Positions 11,267 to 17,259 of a DNA stretch of 64,000 nt are shown here, one piece after another (positions within the stretch are counted from its first letter, which is position 1; every line of letters begins with the position of its first letter). The stretch is taken from NCBI RefSeq assembly GCF_029643245.1, contig NZ_CP116398.1, positions 3,528,372-3,592,371 on the forward strand, in the 5' to 3' direction. Origin of the DNA: Methylomonas sp. EFPC3. GTDB lineage: Bacteria > Pseudomonadota > Gammaproteobacteria > Methylococcales > Methylomonadaceae. The notes beneath the pieces are model-generated. The model did not search any database. It was given only the letters and a program-made list of their open reading frames with translations, and had not been told where the DNA came from. Made by a program: the position numbers and the translations under genes.

Positions 11267-12205
11267 TCAAGCCAAAAAGCCGCTGATGCCGGCTATACCC
11301 TGGGCACCGGCGGCTTGCGCCCGCACCAAATCCTGCCGGCTCAATCCGCCCAAGGCGAACACCGGCAAGTTGGCGTGCTCCAGCAGTTCGCTAAAGCGTT
11401 GCCAGCCTAAAGGCGGTGTGTCGGGGTGCGAAGCGGTCGGCATGACCGGCGCCAACACCGCAAAATCCACCCCAATCGCCAGCGCATGCTGCAGTTCCGT
11501 TGAATTGTGGCAAGACGCGGCGACCCAGCGCATTCCGGGCGGACGTCGATCCAGTCTTATTAACGCCCGGCTGCTCAAATGGATGCCTTGCGCCTGACTA
11601 ATATCCAAATCCAGATCGGCGTTGACCAGCACCTCGACAGCGTGGTGCCGGCATTGCTGCAATACCCGTTCGAGCACGGTTTGTTTGTCGTTCGCGCTTA
11701 GCGTTTTGGTCCGGAATTGCACTAATTTGACGCCGTTGTCGATGATGCGTCGGCAATTCGTCATGATCGATTCCGCATCTGCGCCTTCCAGGATGGCGTA
11801 ATACGCCGGCAGCCGGGCGGCTGCGATGATAGGCAGGTTGGCGGCCGGAAAGGTGAAGTCGGAAAGCTGGCCGGCGCTAACCCATTGCATGGCCTGGCCT
11901 TCGCAGGGCCGGGCTTCGCCGCTGAACGAGTTGACGTTCCAGACGTCCAGCAACACCCGGCGGTCGCCGTAATCGTGGCGGATTTTGATCAAAGGCTCGG
12001 CTGCGGCGACCCGAATCCCGACCTCTTCCTCCAGCTCCCGCGCTAGGGCCTGCAACACAGGCTCGCCGGGTTCCAGCTTGCCGCCGGGAAACTCCCACAA
12101 GCCGCCCTGGTGCGCGTGTTGTGCGCGTCGGGCGATCAGTATCCGACCGGCCGTGTCGCGAACGACGCCGACCGCGACGTGAACCACGTTATTTGGCTGG
12201 AGCAT
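11267..12205 (-). CDS. Nudix hydrolase (MutT-like) fused to a ThiE/TenI-like thiamine-phosphate synthase domain
   Basis: 312 aa. N-terminal Nudix box GGKLEPGEPVLQALARELEEEVGI followed by a TMP-synthase-like barrel. This fusion is common in Pseudomonas-like genomes. Confidence 0.75.
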   Translation of the reverse strand: MLQPNNVVHVAVGVVRDTAGRILIARRAQHAHQGGLWEFPGGKLEPGEPVLQALARELEEEVGIRVAAAEPLIKIRHDYGDRRVLLDVWNVNSFSGEARPCEGQAMQWVSAGQLSDFTFPAANLPIIAAARLPAYYAILEGADAESIMTNCRRIIDNGVKLVQFRTKTLSANDKQTVLERVLQQCRHHAVEVLVNADLDLDISQAQGIHLSSRALIRLDRRPPGMRWVAASCHNSTELQHALAIGVDFAVLAPVMPTASHPDTPPLGWQRFSELLEHANLPVFALGGLSRQDLVRAQAAGAQGIAGISGFLA

Positions 12206-12213
12206 GGGCGGAA

Positions 12214-13428
12214 TTAAGTGCGGTATTCGGCGTTGATTTTGACGTAATCGTAGGAAAAATCGCAGGTCAACACCTGTTCGCTGGCCGTGCCGCGGCCCAA
12301 ACGCACCGTGACGTCGATCTCCTGCTGGCTCATGACCCGCTGGCCGTCCTGTTCGGTGTAAGACGGCGCGCGGCCGCCGTTTTCGACGATGCAGACCGTA
12401 CCCAGGTAAATCTCGATCTTCTCCAGTTCCATATTTTCGACCCCGGCCCGGCCCACGGCGGCCAGGATCCGGCCCCAGTTCGGGTCGCTGGCGAAGAACG
12501 CGGTTTTGACCAGCGGCGAATGGGCAATGGTTTTTGCCACTTGCAGCGCTTCGCCGCTGTCGCGGGCTTGCTCGACGATGATGCGCATCAGCTTGGTGGC
12601 GCCTTCACCGTCGCGAATGATCAATTCCGCCAGCCGTTTGCAGACCGAGGTCAAGGCTGCGCTGAACGCCGCCAGATGCTCGCTGCCCGGCAGTATCTCC
12701 GGCGCGCCGCTGCAGCCGCTGGCCAAGACCACGCAGGCATCGTTGGTCGAAGTATCGCCGTCGACGGTGATCCGGTTAAACGATTGCTCGACCGCCGCAT
12801 TCAGGCACTCTTGCAGCAGACCCTGCTCGATTTTGGCGTCGGTGGCGATAAAGCCCAGCATCGTCGCCATATTGGGCTGGATCATGCCGGCGCCTTTGGA
12901 TATGCCGGTAATGGCGACCGGATGGCCGCCGATGTCGAGCTTCAACGAGGCGCCTTTCGGAAAGGTGTCGGTGGTCATGATTGCCCTCGCCGCCCGGTCC
13001 CAGTGCGATTCCGCCAGATTGGCGACCGCGGCCGGCAGTGCCGCCGCCAGTTTTTCCACCGGCAGCGGTTCGCCGATCACGCCGGTCGAAAACGGCAGCA
13101 CTTGCTGCGCCAACGCATCGACTTCTCCAGCCAAACCGGCGCAGCATGCAAAGGCGTCCTGCAAGCCTTGCTTGCCGGTGCCGGCATTGGCGTTGCCGGA
13201 GTTGACCAGCAGCCAGCGCGGGTTCATCGCCAAATGCGCCTTGGCGACCTGTACCGGCGCCGCGCAAAAGGCGTTTTGGGTGAATACCGCCGCGCAACTG
13301 CCGCCTTCGGCCATTGCGATGACCAAGATGTCGTCGCGCACGGTTTGTTTGATGCCGGCGTTACTGGAGCCGAGTGTGATGCCTTGGACGGCATACATTT
13401 CAGGAAATGAGGTGTCTCCGACTGCCAT
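12214..13428 (-). CDS. argJ: Bifunctional glutamate N-acetyltransferase / amino-acid acetyltransferase ArgJ
   Basis: 404 aa. TTDTFPK...ATMLGFIATD with the autocleavage site (ATML). Confidence 0.9.
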   Translation of the reverse strand: MAVGDTSFPEMYAVQGITLGSSNAGIKQTVRDDILVIAMAEGGSCAAVFTQNAFCAAPVQVAKAHLAMNPRWLLVNSGNANAGTGKQGLQDAFACCAGLAGEVDALAQQVLPFSTGVIGEPLPVEKLAAALPAAVANLAESHWDRAARAIMTTDTFPKGASLKLDIGGHPVAITGISKGAGMIQPNMATMLGFIATDAKIEQGLLQECLNAAVEQSFNRITVDGDTSTNDACVVLASGCSGAPEILPGSEHLAAFSAALTSVCKRLAELIIRDGEGATKLMRIIVEQARDSGEALQVAKTIAHSPLVKTAFFASDPNWGRILAAVGRAGVENMELEKIEIYLGTVCIVENGGRAPSYTEQDGQRVMSQQEIDVTVRLGRGTASEQVLTCDFSYDYVKINAEYRT

Positions 13429-13465
13429 TGTTTACCTTGTTAGACTGATTAACTAATTTTGTTGT

Positions 13466-13780
13466 GTCGCTATCGCGACGAATATTTTAATGTCGGTTCG
13501 CGGACCGACAACCGCGATACTTTTCTTTGCATCGCCAAAGAAAAGTATCCAAAAGAAAGGCGACCCGGACGCCGCTTAGCTCACTCGGCACATCCATGTG
13601 CCTCGCCCTACGGGTGCAATGCATGCAAATCGGCTATCCTGCCTATTTGTCCTGCGCTCCTCGCTTTCGACGGGGATCGACAGAAGGTGCTCCTGCCCCT
13701 CTGTCGATGTGCGGCATCCCTGCCGCACCCCTGCGGGCTATTCCCGCCGAAAGCTCCGGTGCTCGGCGCGGCATACGGGA
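13466..13780. repeat. Left arm of a ~315 bp inverted repeat, hairpin-rich
   Basis: Read directly from sequence. 13520..13780 is about 95% identical to the reverse complement of 14853..15113. Contains hairpins cttttctttg-N6-caaagaaaag, gtgcggca-tccc-tgccgcac and a nested atcgacaga(ggggc-agga-gcccc)ttctgtcgat. The outer 55 bp share palindromes with compensatory changes. Confidence 0.85.
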
Positions 13781-13913
13781 CCAAAACCATCCCGGAGTTT
13801 GAAAATTATATTGGTTGTCTATATACACCGTAGCCTCAATGCAGTGAAACGGAATCGAGGGTTAGAGTGCTTCGATTATCCACGATTCCACTACGCTTCA
13901 TGTCGGCTACTTG

Positions 13914-14759
13914 CTATAGGGATTCTGTTTCCTTGAGAGATTTGCCTTGTGCGTTTTTCCATGCCGTGAGTCCATTAGCTGTTCCCCCGTGAATAACCGC
14001 AGCAGCAGCGCTTGGGCTCGTGAACTCCGTATCTTTTGTGAAAAGCAACCTATCGCCATCACGGACAAGGAAGCCATCTTCTTTTAACTTCTGTCGTAAC
14101 GATATGAGCCAAGGGTATTTTTGGGCAGAATCGCGCTCCTGCAATACCGCATGGGAACCAGAAACCACAATAATTCCGTTTGGGGTTAAGTAGCCAGAAG
14201 CCTTTAGCCCCTTTAGCTCACAGAAGAGCATTTCATATGAACCGGAGTTGGTTTTTATTGCGGCAGTGGGGACGAGAGCTTCTACGCCAAGCGCAGGGAG
14301 AAGTTGCTGCATTTTCTCCAAGAACACCTCCATATCTTCTCTGTCGGACTCTGGGAGCTTTGCACCGCTAGATTGTGCGTTCTTGAGTATGGCGCGTCCA
14401 GATTGCTTTGCTTCGTCTATAAGACGGCCTTCCAAAAATCGAATATGCGCTTTGGTTAAATTCTCGTCTTTGCTTGTAAAGAAGACGATTTGATTCCAAA
14501 AGTCCTTTTCGAGATGGCTTTTGAGGCGATCTTTAATTGACTCAGCCTCTCCGATATAAAGAGCTGGCTTTCCTGTTTCTGTATCAATGCCCGTTAGGAA
14601 GTACACGCCTGCATTCGTTGCCTCTTCCCGAGCGAGAATGCTATCGAATTCTGTTCGAGGGCCTGCCACTGCTTTGCCCGTCCAATTTGAGAGTTCTGCA
14701 GTTCGCAACCGTTTTGGGTCACCATGGGCAAGAAATATTTTAATGGTTGCGCTAGCCAA
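13914..14759 (-). CDS. GIY-YIG nuclease family protein with C-terminal DUF4357-like domain
   Basis: 281 aa. GIY-YIG core GVYFLTG...LYIGEAESIKDRL. The C-terminal half resembles the DUF4357 domain that accompanies GIY-YIG modules. Gene GC is about 48% versus about 60% in the flanks. Apparent TTG start. Confidence 0.7.
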   Translation of the reverse strand: MASATIKIFLAHGDPKRLRTAELSNWTGKAVAGPRTEFDSILAREEATNAGVYFLTGIDTETGKPALYIGEAESIKDRLKSHLEKDFWNQIVFFTSKDENLTKAHIRFLEGRLIDEAKQSGRAILKNAQSSGAKLPESDREDMEVFLEKMQQLLPALGVEALVPTAAIKTNSGSYEMLFCELKGLKASGYLTPNGIIVVSGSHAVLQERDSAQKYPWLISLRQKLKEDGFLVRDGDRLLFTKDTEFTSPSAAAAVIHGGTANGLTAWKNAQGKSLKETESL

Positions 14760-14852
14760 GTCCTGAATCCGTATAACAAAAAGATAAATGGTTTCCGTAT
14801 ATCGTACGTATCCTTGAATAAAACCGTTTCTTTACTATCGAGACGGTTTTCC

Positions 14853-15168
14853 TCCCGTATGCCGCGCCGAGCACCGGAGCTTTCGGCGGGAATAGCCCGT
14901 AGGGGTGCGGCAGGGATGCCGCACATCGACAGAGGGGCAGGAGCCCCTTCTGTCGATCCCCGTCGAAAGCGAGGAGCGCAGGACAAATCGGCAGGATAGC
15001 CGATTTGCATGCATTGCACCCGTAGGGCGAGGCACATGGATGTGCCGAGTGAGCTAAGCGGCGTTCGGGTGGCGTTTCTTTTGGTGACTTTTCTTTGGCC
15101 AAACAAAGAAAAGTTACTCGGCTGTCGGGCCGAGACCCGACGTTAAATCAGGCCGTCGCGATAGCGAC
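14853..15168. repeat. Right arm of the ~315 bp inverted repeat
   Basis: Reverse complement matches 13466..13780. The mirrored ORFs on both arms encode near-identical peptides, which is an artefact of the repeat. Confidence 0.85.
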
Positions 15169-15194
15169 TCAACTGATCAGACAACCAAAAACAC

Positions 15195-15419
15195 TCAACC
15201 CACTTCCAAAACAACCACATACTCCCCATCACCCGCACGAGTCTCCAACACCTGATGCCCATTAATCCGACACCAGGCCGGAATATCCTGCATCACCCCT
15301 GGATCGGTGCATTCCACGGTCAATACGTCGCCGGATTGCAAGGTCTTGACCTTGTCCTGGGTGCGGATTACCGGCAACGGGCACAGCAGCCGGCGTGCGT
15401 TTAACGTGAATTCGCTCAT
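15195..15419 (-). CDS. TusA-like sulfur carrier protein (SirA/YedF/YeeD family)
   Basis: 74 aa. CPLPV active-site motif. ATG overlaps the stop of the upstream PP-loop gene in an ATGA junction. Confidence 0.75.
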   Translation of the reverse strand: MSEFTLNARRLLCPLPVIRTQDKVKTLQSGDVLTVECTDPGVMQDIPAWCRINGHQVLETRAGDGEYVVVLEVG

Positions 15420-16459
15420 ACGAACCACTCCTCGGGAATTTGCTCGGCTGCCAACGGCGTTACGAAAATATTGCGTTCGGCACCGGCGCGGTCGCGTATC
15501 GTCACTTCGACTTGCTCGGCGTCGCGGCCCTGGCCGTAACGTGCCAGGATTTGCCCGGCCAAGGCCAAATCGTCTTCGCCGACTTCGCCGTCGATCAGTA
15601 CCAACGGCCCGCGGTGGCTGGTGCAATGCATGCTGACGAACTCTTTTTTATAGCCGCTCATGAAGCGGGCTTCGCCGTCCTCGCGGGCGACGATGATTTT
15701 GAAATGCGGGCGGGGGCGAATATGGCGGCCGACCTTCAACAGCATGATGTCGTCCAGATCGTAGTCGCGCTTGCCGCGGGCCTGCCACAGGTCGGTCAAT
15801 TTTAAGGAATAACTTTCGTCGGTCAGGAAGCAGCAGCCGCCGGCCGGTTGGGCGTAGTCGGCGAAACCGAATTCTTTGGCCAAGCTCATTTGCGGTTTGC
15901 GGGAGCGGCCACTGAAGCCGAACATCTTGTCGCGGCTGATCCAACCCTCGCGCTCCGGCAGCGTGGCCGGCAGGTTTTGCGCGGATAAAGGGCGTACCAA
16001 TAAATCGTCGGCGCCGGATTCGGCGGCGACGATCGGCATGGTCTGCTTGCGTTGCGACATCGGCCGTTGGCCGACCACTTCACCGGTGATGATGAAATCG
16101 AAGCCGTTTTCCTGCATCCACTGCTTGGCCTTGTTGACCATGAAGATCTTGCAGTCCAGGCACGGGTTCAGATTGGCGCCGTAGCCGTGTTTGGGGTTCA
16201 GCAGCACTTGTTTGTATTCCTCGATGATATCGATGATGTGCAGCTTGATGCCGAGTTGTTCGGCTACCCACAGCGCGTTGTTACGCTTGACCTTGTCGGC
16301 ATCCTGCTTGCGGATGGCGTGGGTGTGGCCTTCGACGCAAAATCCGGTAAAGAAGTTGATGCCTTCGACATGGATGCCCTGGTTCATGATGGTCTGGCAG
16401 GCCAGCATGGAATCCAGGCCGCCGGAAATCAGCGCCACGGCTTTTCGTTGTTGACTCAT
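15416..16459 (-). CDS. MnmA/TrmU-like PP-loop ATPase (tRNA thiolase family paralog)
   Basis: 347 aa. N-terminal PP-loop SGGLDS. Collinear similarity to MnmA: QGIHVEGINFF vs QGYQVEGLFMK, LGIKLHIIDIIEEY vs LGIELHTVNFAAEY, and NPCLDCKIFM. Confidence 0.55.
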   Translation of the reverse strand: MSQQRKAVALISGGLDSMLACQTIMNQGIHVEGINFFTGFCVEGHTHAIRKQDADKVKRNNALWVAEQLGIKLHIIDIIEEYKQVLLNPKHGYGANLNPCLDCKIFMVNKAKQWMQENGFDFIITGEVVGQRPMSQRKQTMPIVAAESGADDLLVRPLSAQNLPATLPEREGWISRDKMFGFSGRSRKPQMSLAKEFGFADYAQPAGGCCFLTDESYSLKLTDLWQARGKRDYDLDDIMLLKVGRHIRPRPHFKIIVAREDGEARFMSGYKKEFVSMHCTSHRGPLVLIDGEVGEDDLALAGQILARYGQGRDAEQVEVTIRDRAGAERNIFVTPLAAEQIPEEWFV

Positions 16460-16626
16460 AACGGGGGGAATTAACGGAAAAAACGCAGCATTATACTGCG
16501 GATTAGGTGTTCCGGGTTAGGTCGAGTGTGGCGGTGGGTTGTAAAAGCCCACAAATAACAAGGGCTTGCGCATGTGTCCGTTGCCGTAAGCCGGGGCGAG
16601 TGCGAACGGCGAACAGATGGCCTGGG

Positions 16627-17259
16627 TTATGGCTGCCAAATTTGGGCGTCGTAATAACGGATCAATTCCGCCGTATTATTGATTTGCAATTTGCCGCACA
16701 GCCGCGATTTGTAAGTGCTGACGGTTTTGTTGCTGATTGCCAGTTCCTGGCCGATTTCGGTAATGCCTTTGCCGTTGGCCAGCATTTGCAGAATTTGAAA
16801 CTCGCGGGCAGACAGTTTTGGGTGCGGTTTCGATTCCGGGGCTACTATGTCGGCAAAGGCCAATTTTTCGGCCAGCTTCGGGTCGATAAAGCGTTGGCCG
16901 GCTGCGACTGCGCGGATGGCGGCCATCAGCGTTTCCGGATCGCTGTCTTTGGTCAGGTAACCTTTGGCGCCGGCCCTCAACGCCAGGCTAACGATTTGCA
17001 GTTCGTTGTGCATGCTCAACACCAGCACCGGCAGCGTCGGGAACTCCCGCCGGATCCGGCTTATCGTTTCGCAGCCGCCCGGGCCGGGCATGTTCAAATC
17101 CAGCAGAACCAGGTCTACTGTGCAGCGCTGCAGGCAGTCCAGCAGTTGTTCGCTGTTTTCGGCTTCGCCGCCAATTTCGATGTCCGCGTTCAGTGCGAAC
17201 AATTGTTTGAGCCCGCTACGCACGATGGCGTGGTCGTCGGCTATGAGCAGTCGAATCAT
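16627..17259 (-). CDS. Two-component response regulator, NarL/FixJ (LuxR HTH) family
   Basis: 210 aa. REC domain with the phospho-acceptor Asp, plus a C-terminal LuxR-type HTH. Confidence 0.85.
   Translation of the reverse strand: MIRLLIADDHAIVRSGLKQLFALNADIEIGGEAENSEQLLDCLQRCTVDLVLLDLNMPGPGGCETISRIRREFPTLPVLVLSMHNELQIVSLALRAGAKGYLTKDSDPETLMAAIRAVAAGQRFIDPKLAEKLAFADIVAPESKPHPKLSAREFQILQMLANGKGITEIGQELAISNKTVSTYKSRLCGKLQINNTAELIRYYDAQIWQP

Follow-up and report, generated by a model that had tools for sequence, protein, structure and literature searches.

A dispersed structured repeat of Methylococcaceae forms the inverted-repeat arms around a GIY-YIG nuclease gene in Methylomonas sp. EFPC3

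Between tusA and argJ of Methylomonas sp. EFPC3, a single gene lies between two long inverted-repeat arms whose hairpins differ from one arm to the other in ways that tend to preserve pairing, and the question raised by this locus is what keeps the stems intact. A preliminary description, made from the letters of the locus, held that covariation between the arms implies selection on secondary structure, either as a structured RNA or as single-stranded DNA (ssDNA) hairpins recognised by an HUH/Y1-type or other end-binding enzyme. In what follows, the window is the whole stretch of DNA that was analysed (64,000 nucleotides; contig NZ_CP116398.1, positions 3,528,372 to 3,592,371), and coordinates refer to it unless another locus is named. 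The locus consists of the following features:

12214-13428, minus strand: argJ, in the flank of the inverted repeat
13461..13794, minus strand: left arm, a copy of a dispersed structured repeat of about 265 nt with a 71-nt insert (nhmmer match 13457-13794, minus)
13830..13910, unstranded: a separate long GTAG...CTAC hairpin, REPIN-like, just inside the inner end of the left arm
13914..14759, minus strand: GIY-YIG nuclease of 281 aa with a C-terminal DUF4357 domain (Pfam DUF4357, 8e-22)
14839..15173, plus strand: right arm, a second copy of the repeat, head to head with the left arm (inverted repeat and nhmmer)
15195-15434, minus strand: tusA, in the flank of the inverted repeat

A ThiI-like gene is also found in the flank. 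The inverted repeat itself was readily confirmed: its arms span 13486-13794 and 14839-15147, each 309 nt long and 93% complementary, and the repeat extends outward to 13461 and 15173 (arms of about 335 nt), so that the interval 13466-13780, for which it had been described, is the left arm only. Arm-to-arm homology ends at the inner boundary of the window arms; the GTAG...CTAC hairpin listed above recurs just inside the inner ends of arms at L028, L119, L154, L189, L190 and L164. The 10-bp stem CTTTTCTTTG/CAAAGAAAAG is present with the loop CATCGC on the left and GCCAAA/TTTGGC on the right (0 expected by chance), and the terminal palindromes GTCGGTTCGCGGACCGAC (13492-13509) and GTCGGGTCTCGGCCCGAC (15124-15141, minus strand) do differ by a paired T:A to G:C double change. 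One detail has to be corrected, namely that a nested hairpin is identical in both arms: the left arm has T at position 13688 where the right arm has G (ggTgc versus ggGgc), and this T breaks one pair of the hairpin in the left arm. Folding of single arms gave structures far more stable than those of shuffled sequences on both strands (z = -5.3 and -6.0, the latter for the minus strand of the left arm; 0 of 100 shuffles). The identity of the two arms is 98.2% over about 217 inner aligned positions and 78.6% over the outer 103-110 nt or so; the inner part has been homogenised, and because the differences are concentrated outside, the compensated changes noted earlier lie in the older, outer part. 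The arms are mosaics: the outer part of the right arm of the window is nearest to arms at other loci and not to its M. aurea counterpart.

Each arm represents one member of a non-coding, structured repeat family that is dispersed in the Methylococcaceae and whose basic unit measures about 265 nt. An exact 20-mer of the arm matched at least 120 metagenome loci, and a profile built from eleven arms produced about 200 arm matches. Full copies are mostly of the basic length (75 of the 112 unique full arms are about 265 nt long); the window arms are the basic unit plus an insert. The outer flanks of the 112 arms fall into 93 distinct clusters, i.e., at least 93 genomic contexts. We found 37 divergent, head-to-head pairs with centres of 16 nt to 3.7 kb, and 43 solo arms, for which at least 3 kb of inner-side sequence holds no partner; direct-repeat arrangements were also seen (L100, L213, L190). 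Since arms also occur solo as a dispersed repeat, they are not the ends of a locus-specific unit. Often a convergent gene has its stop codon a few nucleotides away from the outer end (58 convergent versus 31 co-directional neighbours, median distance 66 nt), and T-runs are located 3' of the outer hairpins on the inward-reading strand. Solo arms show no orientation preference with respect to neighbouring ORFs (8/6/6/5). No conserved promoter was found in arms or pairs, the centres of cargo-less pairs being mutually unrelated and lacking a shared core, and no single arm contains a terminal inverted repeat.

Searches of other collections place the family outside the described ones. Rfam models gave nothing at E<=1 on window positions 12000-17000, the arm itself yielding only weak matches at E<=10; viral contigs and phage records contain no arm match, and plasmid records contain only one of its hairpins (H3, see below), in chromosome-like records. 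Literature searches with the sequence itself, and on Methylomonas repeats and links between REP sequences and CsrA, returned nothing that describes the family, which is therefore without an Rfam model and without a description found in the literature. The H3 hairpin is found at 92-94% identity in Aeromonas and Pasteurella. In Pasteurella multocida, H3 with a U-rich leader stands at both ends of a foldback of about 430 nt between a DUF484 gene and dapF; in Aeromonas caviae, H3 with the U-rich leader adjoins a match to the Rfam model TwoAYGGAY (41.5 bits, cut-off 43).

We aligned 100 distinct arms, derived a consensus structure with RNAalifold, and compared the counts of pairs with slid controls and with 500 shuffles. 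Standard pairs occupy 97.9% of the cells, compared to 39-48% in the slid controls; 40 of the 72 pairs are changed on both sides (11-15 in the controls), there are 843 double-change cells (29-90), and the covariation score is 0.335 (0.016-0.059). None of the 500 shuffles attained any of the observed values. The further copies, which might have shown substitutions that destroy the stems, keep them, and the selection on secondary structure that had been proposed from two arms is upheld with 100. Roughly eight helices are maintained by compensatory change, among them an interleaved helix and a closing helix with a span of about 140 nt. Helix 1, the closing helix, joins the 5' end to a segment about 140 nt downstream and shows A-U replaced by U-A in 28 copies; helix 3 consists of 12 pairs that enclose three hairpins; an extra helix at the outer end, which interleaves with helix 10, covaries too. 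The elements of the left arm to which these counts refer are as follows:

13466..13479, unstranded: outermost hairpin GTCGC-TATC-GCGAC (helix 11), with a T-rich tail 3' of it on the plus strand
13492..13516, minus strand: two interleaved helices at the outer end, GTCGGT/ACCGAC and CGCGG/CCGCG, both covarying across copies
13516..13549, unstranded: H3, an A/T-rich hairpin of 14 bp with a variable loop (helices 7 and 8)
13676-13708, minus strand: nested hairpin with an AGGA apical loop (region of helices 5 and 6)
13709-13728, minus strand: hairpin with a cAGGGAUg loop (region of helices 5 and 6)

In the interleaved region, helix 10 shows double changes in four of its six pairs, and the other helix, (a), has 64 double-change cells and is 94% paired. 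The H3 stem alternates between CTTTTCTTTG and CTTTCTTTTG, both sides changing together. The outermost hairpin at 13466-13479 can be read as terminator-like for transcription that enters the arm.

An important feature of the alignment is its asymmetry between strands. The outward strand, i.e., the minus strand of the left arm (from its inner end, 13794, to its outer end, 13461) and the plus strand of the right arm, folds better, with an RNAalifold consensus energy of -102.9 kcal/mol versus -66.3 kcal/mol for the complement. Pairs that appear as A.C on the outward strand would be G.U on the complement; counted on the outward strand, G.U and A.C stand at 325:44 over all pairs and at 80:36 over the 46 pairs predicted from both strands, although G.T wobbles are tolerated in ssDNA as well and this asymmetry alone is no proof of RNA. 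The outward strand is also rich in GGA, with 7.6 occurrences per arm versus 2.6 on the complement (10 versus 4 in the left arm of the window). The two best-conserved GGA loops, which lie on covarying stems at 13676-13728 (minus strand), are the apical loops of helices 5 and 6: GGA is kept in 95 and 98 of the 100 copies, while the stems vary freely. The loop of helix 5 conforms to CA-N-GGA-N-G, or CANGGANG, in 90 of the 100 copies, and CA-N-GGA-N-G is the consensus of high-affinity CsrA/RsmE sites. The conserved CA-N-GGA-UG apical loops present a CsrA/Rsm-type motif. A role as CsrA binders has been proposed for hairpins whose loops read AYGGAY (PMC4333381).

The insert that distinguishes the window arms from the basic unit is a module of four hairpins, present once in each arm:

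13579..13649, minus strand: 71-nt module of the left arm (arm positions 119-190)
14984..15054, plus strand: the same RtT-like 71-nt module in the right arm

It comprises hairpin A (loop AGGAUA), hairpin B, CCC-GUA-GGG and hairpin D (loop cAUGGAUg). The module is missing from the orthologous arm of M. aurea (L028, 1717-1976) and is found elsewhere, inside the loop of another hairpin, in Methylomonas sp. TEB (L016) and three other arms. The H3 loop of other arms holds a second module of 72 nt, with the same layout and different stems, as well as a 48-nt insert. A 22-mer of the 71-nt module occurs at 85 loci in many Gammaproteobacteria. At 52 of these loci, a tRNA or tmRNA gene lies within 600 nt, and in 45 of the 52 the module is downstream of it on the same strand, at a median distance of 130 nt; tRNA-Ser genes account for 30 of the 45. 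In such tRNA-linked units, a tRNA 3' end (with CCA) is duplicated and closed by its complement, the module standing where the T-loop would be, and the units are often tandem (L071 has three identical units of 159 nt). The window module is 84-86% identical to modules in the tandem tRNA-linked units. Hairpins A, B and C covary across 64 copies, whereas hairpin D is fixed by the search pattern and is uninformative on covariation.

RtT RNA, the repeat of the E. coli tyrT tRNA operon, which is annotated there as a small RNA and is a processed transcript, has a core to which the 71-nt module is related. One tRNA-linked unit (L083, 3523-3659) aligns end to end with the RtT model (RF00391), scoring 42 bits where the cut-off is 45 (E = 7e-5, search space 46 kb), and the tyrT-tyrV region of E. 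coli K-12 (annotated rttR, tpr) contains four units of the same architecture that score 133-137 bits. The link is drawn from the covariance model and the shared architecture; a BLAST search of E. coli genomes with the module itself gave no match. Like RtT, the window module has hairpin A, hairpin B and CCC-NNN-GGG followed by CGAGGC...GAGU; for the RtT core of hairpins plus CCCGAAGGG-CGAGGC...GAGU, the window has CACCCGTAGGGCGAGGCACATGGATGTGCCGAGTGAGC, and this block is the best-aligned part of the RtT match of L083. It differs from RtT in that positions 13455-13800 of the window give no RtT match at E<=10 (the gathering cut-off of 45 bits is not reached), neither a tRNA nor a tmRNA was detected with ARAGORN across the 64-kb window, and the module is flanked by arm sequence, GCGCAGGA and TAAGCGGCG, without a tRNA-derived closing stem, and sits in the loops of another repeat. 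GGA loops are present in the Methylomonas and Lysobacterales versions and absent from E. coli RtT, so CsrA binding cannot be common to the whole RtT kind. It should be noted that two associations of the tRNA-linked modules were considered and abandoned: tRNA-Ser beside the module as a csrA neighbour, which is true of one locus only (L075), and an integrase or island boundary, the neighbours being housekeeping genes and the unit being kept at orthologous sites (L083, L041).

Between paired copies lies low-GC cargo, which varies by locus and species. In the window, the GIY-YIG cargo has a GC content of 0.46 versus 0.60 in the flanks, and across pairs the centres have 0.32-0.47 versus 0.5-0.6. 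The exact GIY-YIG protein is not on record; proteins 91-96% identical to it occur in Janthinobacterium, Iodobacter and a gammaproteobacterial MAG, with ATG as the start codon where the window gene has TTG. Nucleotide identity to these relatives is about 87% and runs only from about 17 nt before the start codon to the stop codon, and four related loci carry the gene without arms. These relationships and its low GC content mark the GIY-YIG gene as horizontally acquired. An apparent ArgJ beside the GIY-YIG homologue of L004 turned out to be wrong when checked.

The tusA-argJ site has arms in every Methylomonas checked, each time with a different cargo. The same two arms surround two unrelated small ORFs in the spacer of M. 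aurea, two ORFs and an IS110 transposase in M. koyamae (CP023669), two small ORFs in M. montana, an EcoRV-type restriction-modification pair with extra arm copies in Methylomonas sp. TEB, and a single ORF of 157 aa in one metagenome contig. The window ArgJ is 99% identical to that of M. koyamae, and arms persist at this locus across species whose ArgJ identity is 80-87%. The cargo of 29 pairs comprises 38 unrelated protein families. Among those identified are three HSDR_N restriction-endonuclease-like proteins, an AIPR abortive-infection protein, a STAND NTPase with a HEPN domain, NADAR and PRTase-CE proteins together with an IS110 transposase, a GNAT acetyltransferase, a RelB-like protein, a DUF1152 protein, a REP-associated tyrosine transposase (RAYT), and the GIY-YIG nuclease of the window. 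No transposase recurs among the pair cargoes: the only ones are IS110 (2 loci) and the one RAYT, each with its own features. Target-site duplications were not found at the pairs examined (window, L028, L016). The arm pairs mark sites of exchange for foreign, mostly defence-type genes.

Several explanations of the arms have to be weighed against these observations. If the compensatory changes were a functionless by-product, with template switching in quasi-palindromes and gene conversion keeping the stems perfect, one could point to the inner window arms, whose 98% identity indicates that conversion does occur, and to the H3 stem, which flips between two states on both sides at once. However, such mechanics leave unexplained why loops are 90-98% conserved while stems vary, why G.U exceeds A.C on one strand, and why helices 1 and 3 covary, with halves about 140 nt apart and other helices between them; we consider this origin very improbable. 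The arms may also be viewed as dedicated genes for small RNAs that sequester CsrA/RsmA (similar to CsrB, RsmY or RsmZ), duplicated divergently. The 7-10 GGA motifs of each arm, located mainly in hairpin loops and showing the CANGGANG consensus, would suit such genes, as would the TwoAYGGAY score of the Aeromonas relative and the matches to RsmY and RsmV on the outward strand, the sole weak matches to the Csr/Rsm clan of Rfam. Those two matches reach only 12.7 versus 57 bits and 10.8 versus 100 bits, respectively, and dozens of copies in unrelated contexts and in random orientation, with no shared promoter, make dedicated genes quite improbable. Hardly any credence can be given to the view that the two arms are terminal inverted repeats of a transposon-like unit, a mobile insertion cassette that brought the GIY-YIG gene into the tusA-argJ site. 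A 335-nt inverted repeat around a single low-GC foreign gene is what such a unit would look like, and other pairs surround other single genes; nevertheless, the view is largely refuted by the GIY-YIG relatives at four other loci, which lack arms and whose homology stops at the gene ends, by the same arms at the same site with different cargo in five other genomes, and by the 43 solo arms, the missing target duplication and the lack of any transposase sharing these ends. Each of these three explanations fails at least one test.

More can be said for recognition as ssDNA, in which a trans-acting Y1/HUH enzyme (RAYT-type) or another recombinase would act on the hairpins, the arms would amount to giant mobile DNA of the REPIN or MITE type, and mobilisation would be what the structure is selected for. 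Dispersal over at least 93 contexts, head-to-head doublets as in REPINs, and selection on one strand are consistent with it, and so are sub-modules that lie inside pre-existing hairpin loops at three or more positions, as though inserted. A RAYT gene lies between the arms of one pair (L159), and IS110-family transposases, whose relatives target hairpins, lie within two. Against this, the RAYT of L159 (NF047646, 96.5 bits) is flanked, at 1791 and 2432, by a different palindrome of 23 nt that is also found elsewhere, so that the arms are not its REP and this RAYT is ruled out as their mobiliser. The arms are about ten times as long as a REP and lack its conserved GTAG head, no pair examined has a target-site duplication, a 140-nt closing helix in a multibranch fold is unlike what end-binding transposases are known to read, and arms at the same locus across 80-87% ArgJ identity imply low mobility. 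We regard this explanation as possible but doubtful. Of the two alternatives offered in the preliminary description, the structured RNA is the better fit (long-range and interleaved helices that covary, G.U on one strand, GGA loops, a module of the RtT kind), and the HUH/Y1 enzyme is disfavoured, the sole RAYT found between arms having its own palindrome and the arms not being the ends of a locus-specific unit.

Judged from these patterns, the structured repeat was most likely selected at the transcript level. A fuller version of this reading, in which the fold is selected in a transcript of the outward strand, the GGA loops are read by a protein, and the copies recombine and so enable cargo exchange, has in our estimate an even chance of being right. 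The outward strand would be transcribed by read-through from the cargo or from neighbouring genes, and the hairpins on that transcript may serve as protein-binding and as 3'-end or stabilising structures, the most likely reader of the GGA loops being a protein of the CsrA/RsmA type. The outer hairpins with their T-runs could stop transcription that enters from flanking genes. At the DNA level, copies would be spread and reshuffled by recombination among themselves, and recombination in the arms may provide portable homology for incoming DNA, by which the cargo between two arms is swapped. Some observations count against the RNA reading: solo arms follow no orientation rule, whereas a dedicated 3'UTR element or sRNA gene should follow one; a conserved promoter is lacking; and the number of copies is far above that of known CsrA sponge genes. 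No csrA was found in the 64-kb window. A bolder proposal, which we think unlikely, is that RtT-type modules are small invasive units that insert into hairpin loops, including T-loops of duplicated tRNA ends and loops of these arms, and have built, in methanotrophs, a repeat of 265-340 nt with a dual role, supplying CsrA-type binding sites distributed over the genome as RNA and, as DNA in head-to-head pairs, a platform of portable homology for the exchange of single defence genes.

The size of the family and its unusually clean covariation make it a candidate for a new structured-RNA or structured-repeat family. The old, unexplained RtT repeats of the E. coli tyrT operon are linked by it to modules outside tRNA operons, and such RtT-type modules are suggested to be insertable units. 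In methanotroph genomes, the arms provide a recognisable marker of sites with a turnover of defence genes, such as those for restriction and abortive infection. Were the GGA loops to bind CsrA, genes would be wired to this regulator in a new way, through dispersed repeats.

The arms can be compared with several known systems. Sponge RNAs of the CsrB/RsmY/RsmZ type and TwoAYGGAY (Rfam clan CL00106) share the repeated hairpins with apical GGA loops and A-U closing pairs (CANGGANG, AYGGAY); they have their own promoter and terminator and one to few genes per genome, which the many, dispersed and promoterless arms with sub-threshold model scores do not fit. Cassette exchange (integron attC, mobile insertion cassettes, minimal mobile elements of Neisseria) is similar in that one or two promoter-poor foreign genes, often for defence, interchange between constant flanks. 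In contrast to these systems, the arms are inverted and not direct, scattered and not arrayed, far longer than attC and without an adjacent integrase, none having been seen among the arm neighbours examined. In integrons, attC sites form an array of direct orientation beside an intI integrase, each a single imperfect hairpin of 60-140 nt, and the inverted, scattered and multibranched arms do not qualify. From MITEs and mobile insertion cassettes, the arms are set apart by the lack of target duplication (window, L028, L016) and of any autonomous, transposase-bearing element that shares their ends (29 pairs). We know of no cassette-exchange system built on RtT modules or head-to-head repeats of this type.

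Closer relatives are the dispersed intergenic repeats. Similar to REP, BIME and REPIN sequences, the arms are dispersed, palindromic, intergenic and often arranged as inverted doublets (37 divergent pairs; at least 93 contexts for the family as a whole), they stay in place at orthologous sites, and their hairpin structure is more conserved than their sequence. They differ in having 265-340 nt and about eight helices in a multibranch fold, whereas a REP is a single hairpin of 20-40 nt, and in lacking the conserved 5' GT[A/G]G, GTAG occurring in the arm only as part of a variable loop, GCCCG-[TA/CA/AA/TTA]-GGGG. The ERIC/IRU elements of enterobacteria and the Correia elements of Neisseria, with 100-300 nt, many copies and positions beside gene ends, are similar as well; co-transcribed with adjacent genes, they influence termination and the stability of mRNA. 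A single arm differs from them by the absence of a terminal inverted repeat and of target duplication, and, to our knowledge, a GGA-loop signature, insertion of sub-modules into loops, and pairing around variable cargo have not been described for them. The kind of element, i.e., dispersed structured intergenic repeats and RtT-type modules, is already known; the novelty lies in the size and multibranch fold, in the GGA loops, in sub-modules inserted into loops, and in pairs placed around sites of defence-gene exchange.

The cargo of the paired arms, the copies of the dispersed structured hairpin repeat that stand head to head in the window, is a low-GC GIY-YIG/DUF4357 gene (13907-14777) with about 87% DNA identity to genes of Janthinobacterium sp. 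B9-8, a gammaproteobacterial MAG and a metagenome contig. This homology has sharp limits, one at the stop codon and the other about 17 nt 5' of the initiation codon; TTG replaces the ATG start in the window. The gene seems to move as a bare unit of one gene. An imperfect hairpin lies close to the left arm on its inner, cargo-facing side:

13830-13910, GTAG...CTAC imperfect hairpin of about 81 nt, REPIN-like, immediately inside the left-arm inner end

The same hairpin was found immediately inside the inner ends of arms at six other loci (L028, L119, L154, L189, L190 and L164), and the neighbouring cargo differs between loci.

Transposase genes were also found as cargo. A REP-associated tyrosine transposase gene, carrying the 23-nt palindrome GTTCCCACGCGCCGCGTGGGAAC on each side, is bracketed by an arm pair (L159, 1791-2454; L152, 260-923); the palindrome was found in L172 and L206, too. 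Paired arms likewise enclose IS110-family transposase genes at two unrelated loci (L210, 3289-4326; L147, 2187-3233), one of which is the tusA-argJ site, the spacer occupied in the window, in another M. koyamae strain. The same spacer has a nested arrangement in a further genome:

L213, 827-4987, nested tusA-argJ spacer of Methylomonas sp. TEB

Here, an arm is followed by an EcoRV-like endonuclease and a D12 methyltransferase, and then by a second arm oriented like the first. A 175-aa ORF and two partial arms come next, and a last arm adjoins argJ; the order looks like arm-plus-cargo units added one after another. At L157 (528-1051, chromosomal), only 16 nt separate two arms, which together make up an almost perfect palindrome about 520 nt long.

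The loop of H3, the 14-bp A/T-rich hairpin of the arm, holds two more insert types in some arms. One, of 72 nt, has the layout of the RtT-like module, the four-hairpin insert of the window arms, with stems that are different and compensated; the other, of 48 nt, contains two GGA-loop hairpins. Arms with an insert of either type are as follows:

First group: L195 6787-7123, L159 1422-1760, L118, L143, L109, L015 3697-4154
Second group: L096 13652-13964, L161, L163, L201, L130, L095

The H3 hairpin with its leader GGGTCGCCTTTCTTTTGG was also detected, at 92-94% identity, outside the arms in distant Gammaproteobacteria:

L215, 1130-1556, H3 hairpin with leader, Pasteurella multocida
L214, 1380-1560, H3 hairpin with leader, Aeromonas caviae

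In P. multocida, the hairpin forms the two ends of a foldback of about 430 nt, which has a DUF484 gene on one side and dapF on the other. In A. caviae, it follows GGA-loop hairpins that almost reach the cut-off of the Rfam motif TwoAYGGAY.

Units of RtT architecture were observed at L071 (551-1074), L083 (3523-3659), L029 (3600-3900) and about 50 more loci within L005-L089. The genes upstream are those for tRNA-Ser, tRNA-Gln, tRNA-Ala, tRNA-Arg, tRNA-Met and tmRNA, and the hosts include Lysobacterales, Cellvibrionaceae, Steroidobacterales, Thalassolituus and others. In every tRNA-linked unit, a duplicate of the 3' end of the tRNA is combined with the complement of that end; a 72-nt module stands at the T-loop position, and a copy of the tRNA-gene terminator closes the unit. 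Tandem arrangement is frequent. The tRNA/tmRNA-linked units fall slightly under the cut-off of the Rfam model for RtT RNA (RF00391) and have two GGA-loop hairpins, whereas RtT of the E. coli tyrT operon is without them.
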